Shown piece by piece: positions 38,396-47,818 of a stretch of 64,000 nt of DNA. How positions within the stretch are numbered: position 1 is the first letter of the stretch; every line of letters starts with the position of its first letter. Made by a program: the position numbers and the translations under genes. The stretch lies in contig JBNKBE010000010.1 in the NCBI GenBank assembly GCA_050287085.1, positions 1 through 64,000 on the forward strand. The letters run 5' to 3'. The DNA comes from Polyangiaceae bacterium. GTDB lineage: Bacteria > Myxococcota_A > Polyangia > Polyangiales > Polyangiaceae. The notes beneath the pieces were generated by a model, which saw nothing but the letters and a program-made list of their open reading frames with translations, was not told where the DNA came from and made no database searches.

Positions 38396-38619
38396 GATGG
38401 CTCTCCACTCGCTTGGGTGTTGCGGATGGGCTCTCGGCGCAAGGAGGGCGACATAGGCGAAAGCTAGCGCGGAACCGTAGTTGCTTCGAGTATTCGTCGA
38501 TTCGCTTCCCGCTAAGGCGTCGTTACGCGACGCTGAGTCAGTGGAGAGGCCCTGCGGCCGAACAAGCATGGGCTCCAGCGTGGTTGTTTCCGGGACGCGG
38601 CAGGGCTATTGGATTACCT

Positions 38620-41600
38620 GTGCGGATCGTCAACGACCCAGTCGGCGGCGGTGCCGATCTCAGAGCGCGTTGGCGGGGTGGTGGGCCGTCCCGGCTTAGG
38701 CGTGCTTTGGATGGGCGAGGGAGGCCATTTTGCGTCGGCGCGGCGGGGTTGTTGGTGGCCGTGTTGTGCGGGTTGAGGCCGTCCATGGCGTCGGCAGAGC
38801 CGCCCGCCGCGGCGGTCAGCGCCCCCAGCGCTTCGGTTGCGGTCGGCGTTGGGGCCGCGCCGTCCGCAAGTAGCGCTACGGAAGAACCTCCAGCGTCTCA
38901 CGGCGCAGCCAGTTCGGCGCCGCCTACAGAGCCAGGCCCGGTACCGGCTCTCATCGATGCTCTGGAGCGTCGTATTCAAGACGTCGAAGCGCTGACCCGG
39001 AGTCAATTGGCGGGCGACGAAGATCTCGTGCGTCTATTGGGTTTCGACCCGGCTGAGCCAGAAGAAGCGCTCGAGGTGGAGCGAGCCCGCTTGCGGATGC
39101 TGGTCGGGGCTGGCGCTCCAAAGTCAGTTGCAGAAGGTGCTGGCGGTGGTGGAGGCGCTGGCGCGCCGTCGGCGGCTGGCTCAGGGGGAGGCGCGCCTGA
39201 TCCGGAGAGGACGGCTCGTCCGGTGGCTTCGGGTGGGGGCGGGATCGGCGGCGCGGATTCCCTCGGTGCGGGCTCGGCGTCCACTGTCGGCACTCCCTCA
39301 GAGCCGGTGCGGGTCACCCTGGCGGAGGCTCGGCGACGACTCGATGCGGCGCGCCTCAAGTTCTGGGAGTTGCCTCGCTCGGAACGAGAACGCCTCCTTG
39401 CGCAACAGGCGGTCCTCCGCGCCGAGTCGGTAGCTACCGCGCGGAGTCGGCAGATCGACGAGGCTGAAGAGGCGGCCCGACGCGCCGAGGAGGAACAGCG
39501 CCGCGCGCTGGAAGCTGCGCGGCTGGCGCGCACTGAAGCTGCGCGGCTGGTCGCTGAGGAATACGCAACGCTGCTTGCCGTGGCTCAGCGGCAAGCGCAA
39601 TTCGAAGCGCGTTTGCTGCAAGGCCGTGACGCGATGGCGCAACGTCGGGACGAGCTCTTGGTCTGGCGCCGCCGCGTTCAAGCGGTGATCGACGCGCCGG
39701 CCATCGGTGCTGCTGCTGCCGCCAACGCGGATGCCACCTACGTGGAGCTACGCCGGGCGCTGCTCGCGTCACGAACGACCCTAGCCACCTCATTGTCCGA
39801 GTGGGGACGGGCGGCTGAGGTTGTGCCCCAGGCGCCAGCGACTACGCTTAGCCAGTTGCCGGCGGAAGTGGACGTTACCGCGGCGGAACGCGAGCGCGGC
39901 GTTGTCGCAGCAAAAGCGGTTGAGCTGATTGCCGAGCAGCAAGGCTACGAAGCCGAGCGGGCGCAACAGCTGATGGCTGAAGTCGAAGAGCTCAATCGTC
40001 TTCGCCTACAGATCCTGGAGTCCTTGTCGCCCCATATGCGCGGCGAGGTACTTGGCTTTGGGGCGCGTGGCTGGCAGCAGGCGGGCGCCGAGATCTGGCA
40101 GGTGTCGCTGACCGTTCGCTATCATGTTCAGGCGACGCTCGATTGGCTTGCGGCAATTCAAAGCGGCGCACAAAGAAGTCAATCTGCGCTGTTCTCGGCC
40201 ATGCTCGTGTTCAAGCTCCTATTTGCCGTGGGGGTGTTGTGGGCGTGGCGGAGACGGGCGCCCGCGGCATTTGCTGCTTTGCGCGAGCGCTTGCGTGTCG
40301 CGCTGCGCTCGCGCGGGGGAAAAGACTGGCTTGCTATTGGTTCGATCGGAGAGCGCAGTGTCGTCTTCCTCGAGAAAGTGCGACGACCGCTCGAGTGGTT
40401 GCTGCTCGTTGCGACCATCAACATCATGCTACCCAGCGCAGCGCGTGAGTTGCTCGAGGTGCGGGCCACCAGCAGTGTTCTGCTCTGGTTGTTTGGGGGG
40501 CACTTCATCGTTCTGGCGCTCGACGCATTGTCCTCTTCCTCCAGCGCTAGCAGTCGAGCGCCCGCAGAGGCCGTGGCGGCGACTCCCACGGGCTCTCTTC
40601 GCATGCGATCGCTACGTCTTGCGGGGAGAGCGGTAGTCGCTTTCGGACTGCCGCTCTCCCTCAGCGAGCTGCTGGTGGGGCGGGGGACTGTTTACGGCTG
40701 GGTCTTTTCTACCTGCTGGTTCGTTGCGCTGCCGATCTTGCTGGTGATCATTGCCTGGTGGCGCCCCGTCATCTTTGAGCGTTTCGAGTTGATTCGAAAG
40801 CCTTCGCGCTTTGAGGCATGGGTACTCTCGAGACGAGAAAAGCCTGCCAATTGGCGTGCCTCCATCGTTAGCAGCGTCGCGGCGGTGGCCGGCGGCATAT
40901 ACCTTTTCGTTCGCGGCGCGGGCCGCGTTGCCCGAGGCCGAGTTCTCGCTTTCAACGTCACACGTCGCGTATTGGCCTACCTCTTTCGGCGCGACATGAC
41001 CAAGCGGGCCCAAGAGGCTCGTCCCAGCTTGTTGCAGCCCCTGGCGGCTGGGCTGTTCCACTCGCTGGGCCCCGATGTGCCTTCGGAGCAGTTGGTGGGT
41101 AGCATAGCCGACGGCCAAGTCGACGAGGTCGTGGAGCGGATTGTGCGGGCAGGTGGCGGCACCGTTGCCATCGTAGGCGAACGCGGAGCGGGCAAGACGA
41201 CCGTGCTTCGACGCATCGTGGCATCGCGGGCCGAGCCGTTGTCCATCCGATGTGATCGCAGTGGCTTTGCGTCCTTGGTTGACCAGCTCAACACGTTGCT
41301 TGACCTGCCATCACAGACGCCGATCGAGCAAGCCGTGCGGCACCTGGATGCACGCGGCGACGATCACGCGCTTCTCATCGATGATGCCCACTTCCTGGTG
41401 CGGCCCATGATGGGGGGACTACACGAGCTTGATCGCGTATTGGGTCTGCTGCGCCGCTATTCACGCAATTGCACCTGGATTCTCGCGTTCGACTCATCGC
41501 TGTGGGGTTTCGTGGAGCGAGCGCGCGGACAGGGGCCGCTATTCGACAAGGTTATTCGTCTCAAAGCGTGGGACGAAGCCGCCATTGTTCGTTTGATAGT

Positions 41601-42090
41601 GCAGCGCAATCGAGCGACGGAGGTGGTTCCCGACTTTCGGCAGCTCGGTCTTGATTTGCCGGCCAATGCTGATCGGGCGGACATCGCTGAGGCCGCTCGT
41701 CGGACGGAAGCGAACTACTATCGGCTCTTGTGGGACTATGCGGGGGGCAATCCTGGTGTGGCGCTTCACTTCTGGCGTCGTTCGCTTGGAGCGACGCGCG
41801 CCGGCAAGATACTGGTGAAGCTCTTTGACGCTCCCGGTGCGGGGCAACTGGACGCTTTGCCAGAGTCGGCAGCGTTTGCGCTACGAGCATTGGTGCAAAT
41901 GCATTGGGCGAGTGTCGCCGAGGTATCAGAAACCACCAATCTACCCCAGGCCGTGGTCGAGGATGCCCTGCGCCACGGTCAGCAACTCGGCCTGTTTGAT
42001 ATCGAAGATGAGCGTTACCGTATTGCGTGGGATTGGTATCGCGCGGTTACACGCTTTCTCCTGCGCCGTCACCTACTCCCTGCGCCATGA
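38620..42090 (+). CDS. Large membrane protein: signal peptide, coiled coil, multi-TM region, P-loop ATPase, winged helix
   Basis: Open frame 38413..42090; true start probably 38620-38707. Walker A GERGAGKTT, Walker B LLIDDAH, GGNPG, C-terminal SVAEVSETTNLPQAVVEDAL. Confidence 0.82.
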   Translation: MRIVNDPVGGGADLRARWRGGGPSRLRRALDGRGRPFCVGAAGLLVAVLCGLRPSMASAEPPAAAVSAPSASVAVGVGAAPSASSATEEPPASHGAASSAPPTEPGPVPALIDALERRIQDVEALTRSQLAGDEDLVRLLGFDPAEPEEALEVERARLRMLVGAGAPKSVAEGAGGGGGAGAPSAAGSGGGAPDPERTARPVASGGGGIGGADSLGAGSASTVGTPSEPVRVTLAEARRRLDAARLKFWELPRSERERLLAQQAVLRAESVATARSRQIDEAEEAARRAEEEQRRALEAARLARTEAARLVAEEYATLLAVAQRQAQFEARLLQGRDAMAQRRDELLVWRRRVQAVIDAPAIGAAAAANADATYVELRRALLASRTTLATSLSEWGRAAEVVPQAPATTLSQLPAEVDVTAAERERGVVAAKAVELIAEQQGYEAERAQQLMAEVEELNRLRLQILESLSPHMRGEVLGFGARGWQQAGAEIWQVSLTVRYHVQATLDWLAAIQSGAQRSQSALFSAMLVFKLLFAVGVLWAWRRRAPAAFAALRERLRVALRSRGGKDWLAIGSIGERSVVFLEKVRRPLEWLLLVATINIMLPSAARELLEVRATSSVLLWLFGGHFIVLALDALSSSSSASSRAPAEAVAATPTGSLRMRSLRLAGRAVVAFGLPLSLSELLVGRGTVYGWVFSTCWFVALPILLVIIAWWRPVIFERFELIRKPSRFEAWVLSRREKPANWRASIVSSVAAVAGGIYLFVRGAGRVARGRVLAFNVTRRVLAYLFRRDMTKRAQEARPSLLQPLAAGLFHSLGPDVPSEQLVGSIADGQVDEVVERIVRAGGGTVAIVGERGAGKTTVLRRIVASRAEPLSIRCDRSGFASLVDQLNTLLDLPSQTPIEQAVRHLDARGDDHALLIDDAHFLVRPMMGGLHELDRVLGLLRRYSRNCTWILAFDSSLWGFVERARGQGPLFDKVIRLKAWDEAAIVRLIVQRNRATEVVPDFRQLGLDLPANADRADIAEAARRTEANYYRLLWDYAGGNPGVALHFWRRSLGATRAGKILVKLFDAPGAGQLDALPESAAFALRALVQMHWASVAEVSETTNLPQAVVEDALRHGQQLGLFDIEDERYRIAWDWYRAVTRFLLRRHLLPAP

Positions 42091-42986
42091 TCAAGCACCC
42101 TATTCGCTTTGCACTCGCTCTGGCGTGTCTCTTGGTCAGCACGCCCGCGTTGGCGCAAGAGGCGTTGGACGTAACCCAAATCGTCAAGTTCATCCGTTGG
42201 GGCGGCATATTCCTTTCGCTCTTTGTGGTGCTTGGAACCATGCTGCTTCTCCGCGTCGTGCGTTCGCTCGCGACCGGATTGGGTAAACGCTTCTCAAGCT
42301 CGCGGCTGCTCATTCAGAAGCTGGAGTCGATAGCTCAATTCATTATCTACGTAGTGGCGTCGGTGATGGTTCTTGGCCTTAGCGTGCGGCTAGACAATAC
42401 GGCCCTGACGGTGATCGGCGGCGGCTTGGCGTTTTCCGTCGGCTTTGCGATGCGAGATCTGGTTGCGGCGTTCATCGCCGGAATTACGATCATGTTCGAT
42501 CGGCCGTTTCAGGTTGGAGATCGCGTTCAATACGCGGGTGAGTATGGGGACATCGTCAAGATTGGCCTTCGCTCAGTGCGGATGAACACGCTGGATCACA
42601 ACGTGGTGACGATCCCCAACAACAAGGTGCTGACCGATGTGACCTCATGCGGCAACTGGGGCGCGCTGGAAATGCAGGTCGCCATGAGCTTCTACATCGG
42701 AGTGGACCAAGATGTTGAACTTGCCTGTCGTCTGGTGGAAGAGGCCTGTCTAACCAGTCGCTTTTGCTATCTCGAGAACCCGGTGCCGGTGTTGGCAAAG
42801 CAGATCATTATCGAGCACTACTTGGCGTTCGAGTTGAAGGCTCGCCCCTATGTGTTGGACGTGAAGTTCGAGAAGGCCTTCGAGTCCGACGTGCACGTTA
42901 GGGTGCAGCGAGCGTTCGCAAAACATAGGATCTTGCCGCCGGCTATTCTGCACCGGAACCTAGGTCAGGATGGCGATGGGCATTGA
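42087..42986 (+). CDS. MscS-family mechanosensitive channel
   Basis: GFAMRDLVAAFIAG..DRPFQVGDRV..GDIVKIGLRS..IPN; ATGA overlap with the upstream gene. Confidence 0.92.
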   Translation: MIKHPIRFALALACLLVSTPALAQEALDVTQIVKFIRWGGIFLSLFVVLGTMLLLRVVRSLATGLGKRFSSSRLLIQKLESIAQFIIYVVASVMVLGLSVRLDNTALTVIGGGLAFSVGFAMRDLVAAFIAGITIMFDRPFQVGDRVQYAGEYGDIVKIGLRSVRMNTLDHNVVTIPNNKVLTDVTSCGNWGALEMQVAMSFYIGVDQDVELACRLVEEACLTSRFCYLENPVPVLAKQIIIEHYLAFELKARPYVLDVKFEKAFESDVHVRVQRAFAKHRILPPAILHRNLGQDGDGH

Positions 42987-44966: not shown

Positions 44967-45665
44967 TTAACTTACGGTATACTTTCGACCCCGGTATACG
45001 ATGGTCCTGCCCCTGGGCGCGGGTCCCGGCGCGCTTGCGTCGGGTGCCGGGATCGCCGAGGCGGAAAGGCTCGGCTCGGTCGGTTCGGAATGCCGGAGCG
45101 CTGCCATGTCGGGTGCACTCGTTCTGTCTCCTAGCCCGGAGTACGGGCTCCTGGCTGACAGGTCAGGCTGCGAAGCTCGTCCGGGGGCCTCCGGAAACGC
45201 GTAGTCTCGGACTGAGTCCGTGGGCAGGGTGCTTTGGGGCGGCCTCATGGTGGCTGATGCCCAACCCGAATCGCTATGGGGGGGGTACGAGGCGTGCCGT
45301 GGGCTTGCGGGGTGGGCCGACTCGACACCGTCCAGGGAGCGATGGATGCGCCGTGCGGCCAGGCGCAACCCGAGCCGCAGCGCGCGCACGTTGACGGTGT
45401 CGTCACCCAGGGCGACCAACCACCCCGCGCCACAGGGCGCGACGAATAGTCGATACGACTCAAAGCGGATGTTGCACAGTTGGATGTCTTCGCTTTCGTC
45501 GGCTAGGGCTTCCATGAGCGTCGCAATGCGGGGCGCCGCGTTGCGGAGCTCTTCGTGTCCGATGAAGCGAGGCACATCGGTGCCCAGCAGGTGTCCACCG
45601 GAATCCAGCACGAAGGCGCCCTGGATCCCCTCGACGTCTCGCAGTCCGGCCAAGCTATGGTTCAT
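44967..45665 (-). CDS. Roadblock/LC7 (MglB-like) domain protein with disordered tail
   Basis: LAGLRDVEGIQGAFVLDSGGHLL..LVAL..VNVRALRL pattern; low-complexity tail ending IVYRGRKY. Confidence 0.75.
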   Translation of the reverse strand: MNHSLAGLRDVEGIQGAFVLDSGGHLLGTDVPRFIGHEELRNAAPRIATLMEALADESEDIQLCNIRFESYRLFVAPCGAGWLVALGDDTVNVRALRLGLRLAARRIHRSLDGVESAHPASPRHASYPPHSDSGWASATMRPPQSTLPTDSVRDYAFPEAPGRASQPDLSARSPYSGLGDRTSAPDMAALRHSEPTEPSLSASAIPAPDASAPGPAPRGRTIVYRGRKYTVS

Positions 45666-45667
45666 CC

Positions 45668-46423
45668 CTAGCGTCTCCTGAAGCGTTCAAGGGTATCGCG
45701 GACCTGTTGAGCTGAGCCGACCATGCCGAGCCAGGACCCGGTTGTTTCGCGGCGGATGACCAGTGTCTTGCCGCTTTCGTAGGACATGTCGAGCGCTCTC
45801 TCACTGCCCAAGCCCAGTTCTTCACCCAGAATGCGAGCCAGAGTGGTGACGTAGGACACGGTTTCTGCGAGTGCTTCTCGGCCGGGACCGTGCGCGGCCT
45901 TCAGTTGGCCTTCGCGCGAGACGCGTACGGCGCAGGGAACCCCCAGTGGGGGTGGTGGCCCGGGGACGTCCTCGTTGTCCAGGTCCTTCTCTCGGGCGCT
46001 GTGCGAGGTCTTCTCGTTGGTGGCCGGTCTAGACGTCGGGCGCGCGCTGACGCGATCGCTCTTCGCCTCGCGGCTTTCGTCCTCGGCGTGGGCTAGGCGG
46101 AGCAACACCGATTGCCATGGGGCGTTAATAGTACGCCGGCGCTCCTGCGCTGTTGAACAGGGACTGAAGCGCCCGTGACCCCAGCGCAGCATGCGCTCAA
46201 GCGCCACTTCACCTTCGAGTCCTGCCGTTTCCGCATGCACTAGGTTCCCGGCGGAGAACACGAGCAAACCGATGTCTCCCCCGGAACTCAGTTCGTAGGT
46301 GGCGTCCGCACGCGACATGCAGTGAAGCTGAATAAGGTCTGAAATGCTGGTGCCGCTGAGCTGGCCTGCGAAGCCAGATCTTGTCGGAAAGGGCGTAACG
46401 TTGTCGGCCATGACGGTTTTCAT
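45668..46423 (-). CDS. DUF4388 (PATAN) domain protein with C-terminal roadblock-like domain
   Basis: FAGQLSGTSISDLIQL..GLLVFSAGNLVHAE..GEVALERMLRWGHGRF..TI..WQSVLL; tail AVRVSREGQL..LGEELGLG. Confidence 0.82.
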   Translation of the reverse strand: MKTVMADNVTPFPTRSGFAGQLSGTSISDLIQLHCMSRADATYELSSGGDIGLLVFSAGNLVHAETAGLEGEVALERMLRWGHGRFSPCSTAQERRRTINAPWQSVLLRLAHAEDESREAKSDRVSARPTSRPATNEKTSHSAREKDLDNEDVPGPPPPLGVPCAVRVSREGQLKAAHGPGREALAETVSYVTTLARILGEELGLGSERALDMSYESGKTLVIRRETTGSWLGMVGSAQQVRDTLERFRRR

Positions 46424-46425
46424 CT

Positions 46426-47818
46426 CTAAGCCTCGCAATCTTCAACCGGTGATGCGAAGGCGAGCTCGGTGGGATACGCTTCGAGCGCGTGTTCGCTGAG
46501 ATCTAGTCCTTCGAGCTCTTCCTCAGGTCCAACACGGAGCTTTCCGAGTGCGCTCATGCTTTGAAAAACCGCGCTGGACATTCCGAAGGACCAGGCAAAG
46601 CAGGCGACGACTCCGATCAGTTGGCTCGCGAGTTGGGCAGCGCTGAAGCCTGCGTGGTGAAAGAGGGCTACTGCCAACGTGCCCCAAGCGCCACTTACGC
46701 CGTGTACGCTGATAGCACCCACAGGGTCATCGACGCCCTTGCGCTCAAACGCAAGCACCGACGCGAGCACCAACACCCCCGCGATACCACCGATGGCGAC
46801 GGCACTCGGGGGGCGAACGTAGGCACACCCTGCAGTGATCGCGACCAGGCCGCCCAAGGCTCCGTTGATCGCGATGCCTAGATCAGGCTTGCCGTTGACG
46901 CGCCAGCTGGCGAGCGTGGCGCTGAGGGCGCCGGCGCAGGCCGCGAGATTGGTGTTGACCGCGATGAATGCCATCGCCTTTCCGGAGCCGCCAAAGAGGT
47001 TGTCGGCGCCGCCCGCGACGCTTGTTGTGCTTCCAGCGTTGAATCCAAACCAGCCCATCCACAGGATGAAACAGCCTGTCGTGGCCAATACGAGGGAGTG
47101 CCCTAGCATGGGGCGCGGTTCGCCTCGGGCGTCGAAGCGCCCGAGGCGGGGGACCCAGGAAAAGAGCCCCCGCGAGGGCGGCCCAGCCTCCGAGGCTGTG
47201 GACCACGGTGGAACCGGCGAAATCTAGAAAAGGAGGCAACTCCAGTCGGGCCAACAAGCCCCCGGCGGGCGCTTCGAGCCATCCGCCGCCTTCGAATAGG
47301 CCGCCCCAGGCCCACGCCCCGAAAACGGGGTAGATGGCCGCGGTCAGGACCAAGCTCGCTACCAGGTAGGCGACGAAGCGAGTTCGCTCTGCCATGGCGC
47401 CCGAGACAATAGTTGCTGCGGTGGCGCAGAACACGGTCTGAAAGAGGAAGAACGAGTAGGTTTCGACCTGGCTTTCGTAGCCGGAGAGAAGAAAGCCCGT
47501 GCTGCCAAAGAGACCATTGCTCTTGCCGAACATGAGCCCGAAGCCGACGATCCAAAACGCAAGAGAGCCGACGGAGAAGTCCATCAGGTTCTTCATCATG
47601 ATGTTGACCACGTTCTTGGCCCGAGTGAATCCGGCTTCGAGCAAGGCAAAGCCGGCCTGCATCCAGAACACCAAGATGGCTGCCATCACGGTCCAGAGCA
47701 TGTCGACGGCGTAGCCGCCCTGCTGACCCATGGGGGTGGACTCGGCGTCCGTGGCCGCATGGGCGCTTGCGGCGCTCAGGAGGCAGCCGAGTGCAAGCCC
47801 TGCCCAGGAGCTGGCCAT
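46426..47818 (-). CDS. amt: Ammonium transporter (Amt), split by a +1 frameshift at G5 47148-47152
   Basis: WMQAGFALLEAG, TIVSGAMAER, DFAGSTVVH, then WMGWFGFNAGS, GLVAITAG, DDPVGAISVHG, EEELEGLD. Removing one base gives LGPRLGRF. Start estimated. Confidence 0.9.

Follow-up and report, generated by a model that had tools for sequence, protein, structure and literature searches.

The locus and its interrupted first gene

The window analysed here is a stretch of 64,000 nucleotides from a Polyangiaceae bacterium, in which three minus-strand genes follow one another in the order amt, a PATAN-roadblock gene (gene 2) and a roadblock gene (gene 3). An earlier, sequence-only reading had placed the three genes 2 nt apart, and both junctions (TAG-AG-ATG and TAG-GG-ATG) were re-read as claimed. 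The features are as follows.

47150..47818, minus strand: N-terminal half of amt, 223 aa (Pfam positions 1-173, N1/N2 signature, first His motif)
46426..47148, minus strand: C-terminal half of amt, 240 aa (Pfam positions 174-399, second His motif, conserved C-terminal region)
45668..46423, minus strand: gene 2, 251 aa (PATAN/DUF4388 at 46073-46369, disordered linker, roadblock-like domain at 45674-45934)
44967..45665, minus strand: gene 3, 232 aa (roadblock domain at about residues 1-110, linker, C-terminal motif)
44973..45002, minus strand: tail motif IVYRGRKYTV, gene 3 residues 222-231 (Arg225 at 44991-44993; predicted beta-hairpin)
47148..47152, no strand: five-base G/C run with the one-base frame break (both run X1 contigs end here)
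47121..47148, no strand: inverted repeat of 11 bp without mismatch, immediately next to the break

The amt gene had been described as a single gene. Its frame is in fact split in two (47818-47150 and 47148-46426) by one surplus base within 47148-47152, and the amt of relatives is a single continuous frame; the joined halves match PF00909 over its whole length (1-173 and 174-399). Of 106 conserved columns, intact relatives keep 101-106 and the two halves 103; the remaining three (G-W-L) are in fact present, displaced by a gap. In run X1, which is a possible source of the assembly and so is not independent of it, one long contig stops at 47151, another starts at 47150 and no contig bridges them. 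Inverted-repeat sites like that at 47121..47148 are hot spots of Illumina error. Because both run X1 contigs end at the site, the break is probably an assembly fault. A recent genuine break is possible as well, since a second copy of the amt-PATAN start on contig C26 of the same genome (C26:80855-82393) looks decayed from its sequence: its amt is without reference residues 96-115 and 201-243 and carries frame changes, and its PATAN gene terminates in a 60-nt element present eight times in the assembly, chiefly where contigs end. Elsewhere in the window, 38413-42986 encodes a membrane protein of 1,225 aa whose C-terminal domain is AAA/STAND-like, and the gene directly downstream of it codes for a small mechanosensitive channel.

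Two roadblock proteins and an Arg-Gly tail

The domains proposed earlier for the two small proteins were borne out. Gene 2 matches DUF4388 (PF14332) at residues 19-117 with 49.2 bits against a cut-off of 25, and in its AlphaFold model (pLDDT 81) the C-terminal domain has a roadblock fold, with Z about 10 and rmsd 2.5-3.2 to solved roadblock domains; the PATAN domain itself had no fold match in the structure searches. Gene 3 scores 15 bits with Robl_LC7 of Pfam, a weak match below the cut-off, and it is the predicted structure of the intact orthologue from genome G010 (pLDDT 84) that assigns it to the roadblock/LC7 proteins, its N-terminal domain superposing on 3kye with rmsd 1.4 over 116 columns (E 8e-7). 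MglB is among the top fold matches for the roadblock domains of both proteins, and the profile comparison of the two domains with each other is weak (probability 31%). The ESM Atlas returned Myxococcota clusters only, plus a 0.85 Robl_LC7 lead. Membership of gene 3 in the PII family was considered and rejected, its fold being that of a roadblock and the window having no PF00543 match.

Behind the roadblock domain, gene 3 continues into a disordered linker of 110 residues rich in Pro, Ser and Ala (55% P+S+T+A) and ends in a [YF]-R-G motif, which in the window lies in IVYRGRKYTV. The earlier description of gene 3 overlooked this conserved C-terminal YRG motif. In the AlphaFold model of the G010 orthologue, the tail forms a hairpin (181-184/187-190) with R185-G186 at its tip (pLDDT 87). 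The PII T-loop of the same genome as the window reads EVYRGSAYVV, a loop that is nearly invariant in Polyangiaceae (31/31), and the window tail is identical to it at six of nine positions, joint best among the 4,910 C-termini of the genome. What is new here is thus a conserved [YF]-R-G tail on a roadblock protein, predicted from sequence and model to be a hairpin matching the tip of the PII T-loop.

Among the 150 database relatives that match gene 3 best, 132 have the motif [YFW]RG within their final 20 residues, a figure inflated because the search profile included the tail; the background is 16 of the 4,910 called genes of the genome. It is present at all 34 amt-adjacent Polyangiaceae loci and at 14 of 41 amt-less ones (the scripted count of 15/41 included one broken copy), these numbers coming from 80 roadblock rows minus three cut by contig ends and two N-terminal halves of frameshifted genes. 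Outside Polyangiaceae it is found at 4/4 amt-adjacent versus 5/11 other loci, so that across all families every amt-adjacent relative with a complete tail keeps it (38/38). With the tail left out of tree building, the label changes six times and every tail-less row is amt-less; one loss falls at G270, an amt-less sister of the amt-linked G036 and G254. A tree-aware test has only four independent pairs, of which 2.7 go the same way and none the opposite way (p 0.25, not significant), and the naive Fisher value for the association of tail and amt (p 6e-10) is not counted as evidence, since related loci do not vary independently.

Across the family, the residues flanking YRG are no nearer to the T-loop than those of 563 control sites are (p 0.35). 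Scored with the tail profile, the PII loop comes 88th, and the score of the window tail is reached by 5 of the 563 controls. The tail is basic at the position where the T-loop has Glu44, and the equivalent of Tyr51 is Tyr in 24 of 132 tails, for which reason mimicry of a GlnD substrate was set aside. The family-wide likeness is thus a three-residue core, weak alone; what carries the case is that it coincides with the linkage to amt. Similar roadblock proteins (L130, L270, L271-L273) end, after a linker, in other conserved tags that are KKGIW-like or ARF..H..W..T.R-like, suggesting a modular design in which a roadblock domain carries an address tag.

Linkage to amt, separation from PII, and the Amt clades

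At a threshold of 1e-30, the gene 2 profile detects 53 of 301 Polyangiaceae genomes and 10 of 89 genera, a tally that includes the unpublished G319, which is counted nowhere else. The pair of PATAN-roadblock and roadblock genes adjoins amt at 36 loci in nine Polyangiaceae genera: 10 upstream on the same strand as in the window, 16 divergent, 4 downstream on the same strand and 6 convergent. Gene 3 had a match in 27 of the 251 genomes of the order sample. The phylum sample, with eight candidates scored per genome, was positive in 4 of 401 genomes, all of them Polyangiaceae. Among 15 loci from four other families, amt is adjacent in four, which come from two families, and several of the others lie on short contigs; a related-locus search with the PATAN protein as query gave no matches. 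The linked Amts of Polyangiaceae form three supported clades, each with unlinked sisters, and a single-clade constraint is rejected (p-AU 2.5e-43, with one unlinked row in the constraint group, added after inspection of the tree); a fourth linked clade is seen outside the family. The adjacency to amt on which the sequence-only reading depended is therefore conserved, at 36 loci in nine genera and four loci elsewhere and with several Amt clades, and the linkage has been re-formed repeatedly.

Across genera, amt is the only recurrent neighbour of the pair, and other neighbours vary. Fourteen Polyangiaceae loci retain the tail without an adjacent amt; in three such genomes (G005, G007 and G009), none of the Amts listed belongs to a linked clade. 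In the genus of the window, the tail-bearing amt-less pairs of L040, L041, L047 and L121 adjoin an asparaginase_2 gene, and three of them also an aminotransferase gene. Upstream of the module at L030 (genome G017) lies a cluster that includes DUF1989 and a biotin carboxylase, the latter probably a urea carboxylase. Genomes G036, G238, G290 and G100 have five to eight amt matches each, some in tandem, and two of these have an adjacent PII-like gene.

The amt-glnK pair is regarded as ancient and near-universal. The absence of a PII gene beside amt, remarked on earlier, holds: the window contains no PF00543 match, and a check for a separate amt-glnK locus placed the sole PII gene of the genome on another contig, about 9 kb away from another amt gene. 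The genome also encodes GlnD, and its PII is a conventional one. No PII match was found at the 36 amt-linked loci (for 30 of them the sequence read extends 1 kb or more to either side). Of the 31 best Polyangiaceae PII loci, none has an amt closer than 1.5 kb, and 2 of 30 other amt loci have a PII-like neighbour. A PII gene lies 9-11 kb from amt or from the module in the window genome (G000:C8) and at G008:C2, G024:C148, G026:C93, G036:C35 and G138:C178, with ruvB within or beside these regions in the genomes read; this proximity is perhaps a trace of an earlier linkage. Upstream of the amt or PATAN genes, no sequence matched the sigma-54 consensus at the level of 10 of 11, and there was no excess over shuffled sequences.

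Both twin-His motifs and the C-terminal EEELEGLD claimed for the window Amt are found in its sequence, and both His residues are conserved in 75/75 aligned Amts. It has no fused transducer domain, its stop lying about 16 codons past the Pfam end. The N1/N2 signature of ammonium receptors is QX6EX15NX2DF/TX54-60TX2S/T, and some proteins bearing it are transporters, including plant transporters (PMC11152129). The N-terminal half of the window Amt is a strict match; all six ligands are present in 15/15 members of its clade versus 0/60 other Amts, and the strict signature in 12 of the 15. By linked Polyangiaceae clade, the full signature stands at 15/15 versus 0/14 and 0/4, the 18 Amts of the two other clades being without Asp48 or Asn45. 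The solved structures in the PDB nearest by sequence are the receptors Ks-Amt5 and Sd-Amt1. A receptor role is thus plausible, on these sequence grounds, for the clade of the window, and it cannot be a general need of the module since two other linked clades are without the full signature; the earlier notion of Amt as ammonium sensor keeps its footing in one of three linked Polyangiaceae clades. The linked Amts have Gly where AmtB has Asp, and Asn at the exit-narrowing position of Sd-Amt1. This Asp of AmtB (Asp313) is presumably the contact partner of GlnK Arg47. The genome carries four amt loci, of which two, other than that of the window, hold an intact gene.

A possible plug for Amt, weighed against other readings

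The roadblock domains of genes 2 and 3 likely pair as a heterodimer, as roadblock biology and their fixed adjacency suggest, and the Arg-Gly tail, a predicted hairpin, would dock at the exit on the cytoplasmic side of the adjacent Amt, in the manner of the GlnK T-loop. Docking would tether the PATAN complex to the transporter and probably close Amt, which could gate uptake, hold the complex at the membrane, or both, with the PATAN domain as its input or its output. For the window clade, which has the N1/N2 site, such docking could in addition pass the state of ammonium occupancy to the inside. We infer the heterodimer, the binding to Amt and the direction of control alike. The precedents are GlnK, whose Arg47 at the T-loop's tip blocks AmtB (PMC4274968, PMC3198391), and yeast Amu1, in which the Arg of a Gly-Arg-Gly repeat is required to bind and inhibit Mep1/3 (PMC4501750). 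Judged by sequence, model and analogy, docking of the tail on Amt in the manner of GlnK or Amu1 is a serious possibility that we place slightly short of an even chance. Several findings weigh against it: a family-wide likeness of three residues, the basic character of the tail where the T-loop has Glu44, the scarcity of Tyr at the Tyr51 equivalent, the non-significant tree-aware test, the 14 amt-less loci that retain the tail, the Gly and Asn of the linked Amts at the AmtB and Sd-Amt1 positions, and the presence of a conventional PII and GlnD.

The pair may instead be a nitrogen-linked regulator that lies near amt for shared expression, its tail being a general-purpose hairpin that docks on some other partner and makes no contact with Amt. 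The three-residue likeness to the T-loop, the 14 amt-less loci that retain the tail (four of them beside an asparaginase gene) and the different end tags of other PATAN-paired roadblocks would all suit this account; the convergent and downstream arrangements (10 of 36) are a poor fit to shared promoters, no sigma-54 motif lies upstream and the tail is never lost beside amt, and we consider it somewhat unlikely. The core idea of the sequence-only reading, that Amt is a split ammonium receptor signalling to the PATAN-roadblock pair, would work via another surface and without a pore plug. It draws on the strict signature in the window Amt, on the six ligands confined to its clade, on Ks-Amt5 and Sd-Amt1 as nearest structures and on the two other intact amt genes, which argue in its favour; yet it leaves the invariant tail unexplained, 18 linked Amts of two clades are without Asp48 or Asn45, and the signature also occurs in plant transporters (PMC11152129), and it appears unlikely.

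The same reading had also looked to motility or polarity control, in which case the pair would be an MglB-like regulator of polarity or pili and amt would feed it or be a bystander. MglB is indeed a top fold match, in Synechocystis the PilB1 motor is bound by PATAN (bioRxiv 2021.06.11.447907) and PATAN and MglB genes lie near some mglA genes (PMC4316618). However, no small GTPase or pilus family occurs among 169 scanned neighbours (of 279 called; sequences cut to 420 residues), and the canonical mglBA pair of the genome, whose MglA escapes the PF03029 profile and was read directly, is located away from the locus. Linkage with four Amt clades is also unlike a bystander, and such a role is highly improbable.

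Returning to docking on Amt, the broader proposal is that myxobacteria of this order possess a third independent plug for Amt, a tethered copy of the T-loop tip on a roadblock protein that would replace GlnK beside four Amt lineages and couple the state of the transporter to a PATAN partner; this we advance tentatively, as a conjecture that may well fail. The module is a conserved Amt-associated one, apparently undescribed so far: the literature searched, which comprised main texts and few subscription journals, gave no description of an amt-roadblock module or of a PII T-loop mimic at Amt, and supplements of PATAN and small-GTPase surveys may list such a neighbourhood. Further background came from PMC8395244, PMC5764959 and bioRxiv 2024.03.11.584430. 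In this lineage, where amt and PII are no longer coupled, another partner has gone along with four Amt clades. Should the tail plug the pore, it would be a bacterial non-PII regulator of Amt, roadblock proteins would gain a role without a GTPase, and a 12-residue peptide could probe what suffices to bind and close Amt. The module also offers stand-alone Amts that have the N1/N2 site a candidate for their soluble partner.

Several known systems resemble the module in part. As in loci where MglB or other roadblock proteins and PATAN lie near MglA GTPases (PMC4316618), it has roadblock folds and a PATAN domain adjoining a roadblock; unlike them, it has no GTPase in the neighbourhood scan, and amt is the sole recurrent neighbour. 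The clade of the window Amt shares the N1/N2 signature with the receptors Ks-Amt5 and Sd-Amt1, its best PDB sequence matches, but has no fused kinase or cyclase, and two other linked clades are without the full signature. With GlnK-AmtB the module shares a small, predicted cytoplasmic partner encoded beside amt and a Tyr-Arg-Gly at a loop tip, in register with the PII of the same genome. Gene 3 differs from GlnK in its roadblock fold, in carrying the motif on a C-terminal tail after a disordered linker, in having no known ATP/2-oxoglutarate cleft and in an equivalent of Tyr51 that is mostly not Tyr. Yeast Amu1/Par32, the inhibitor of Mep1/Mep3, is likewise a non-PII partner that uses an Arg-Gly motif in a disordered region, whereas it is fungal, has four GRGGAGN repeats and no folded domain and is controlled by kinases (PMC4501750), and homology is not claimed. 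If a third plug does exist, the Arg-Gly tip would be a convergent key to the exit of Amt, shared with GlnK and fungal Amu1.
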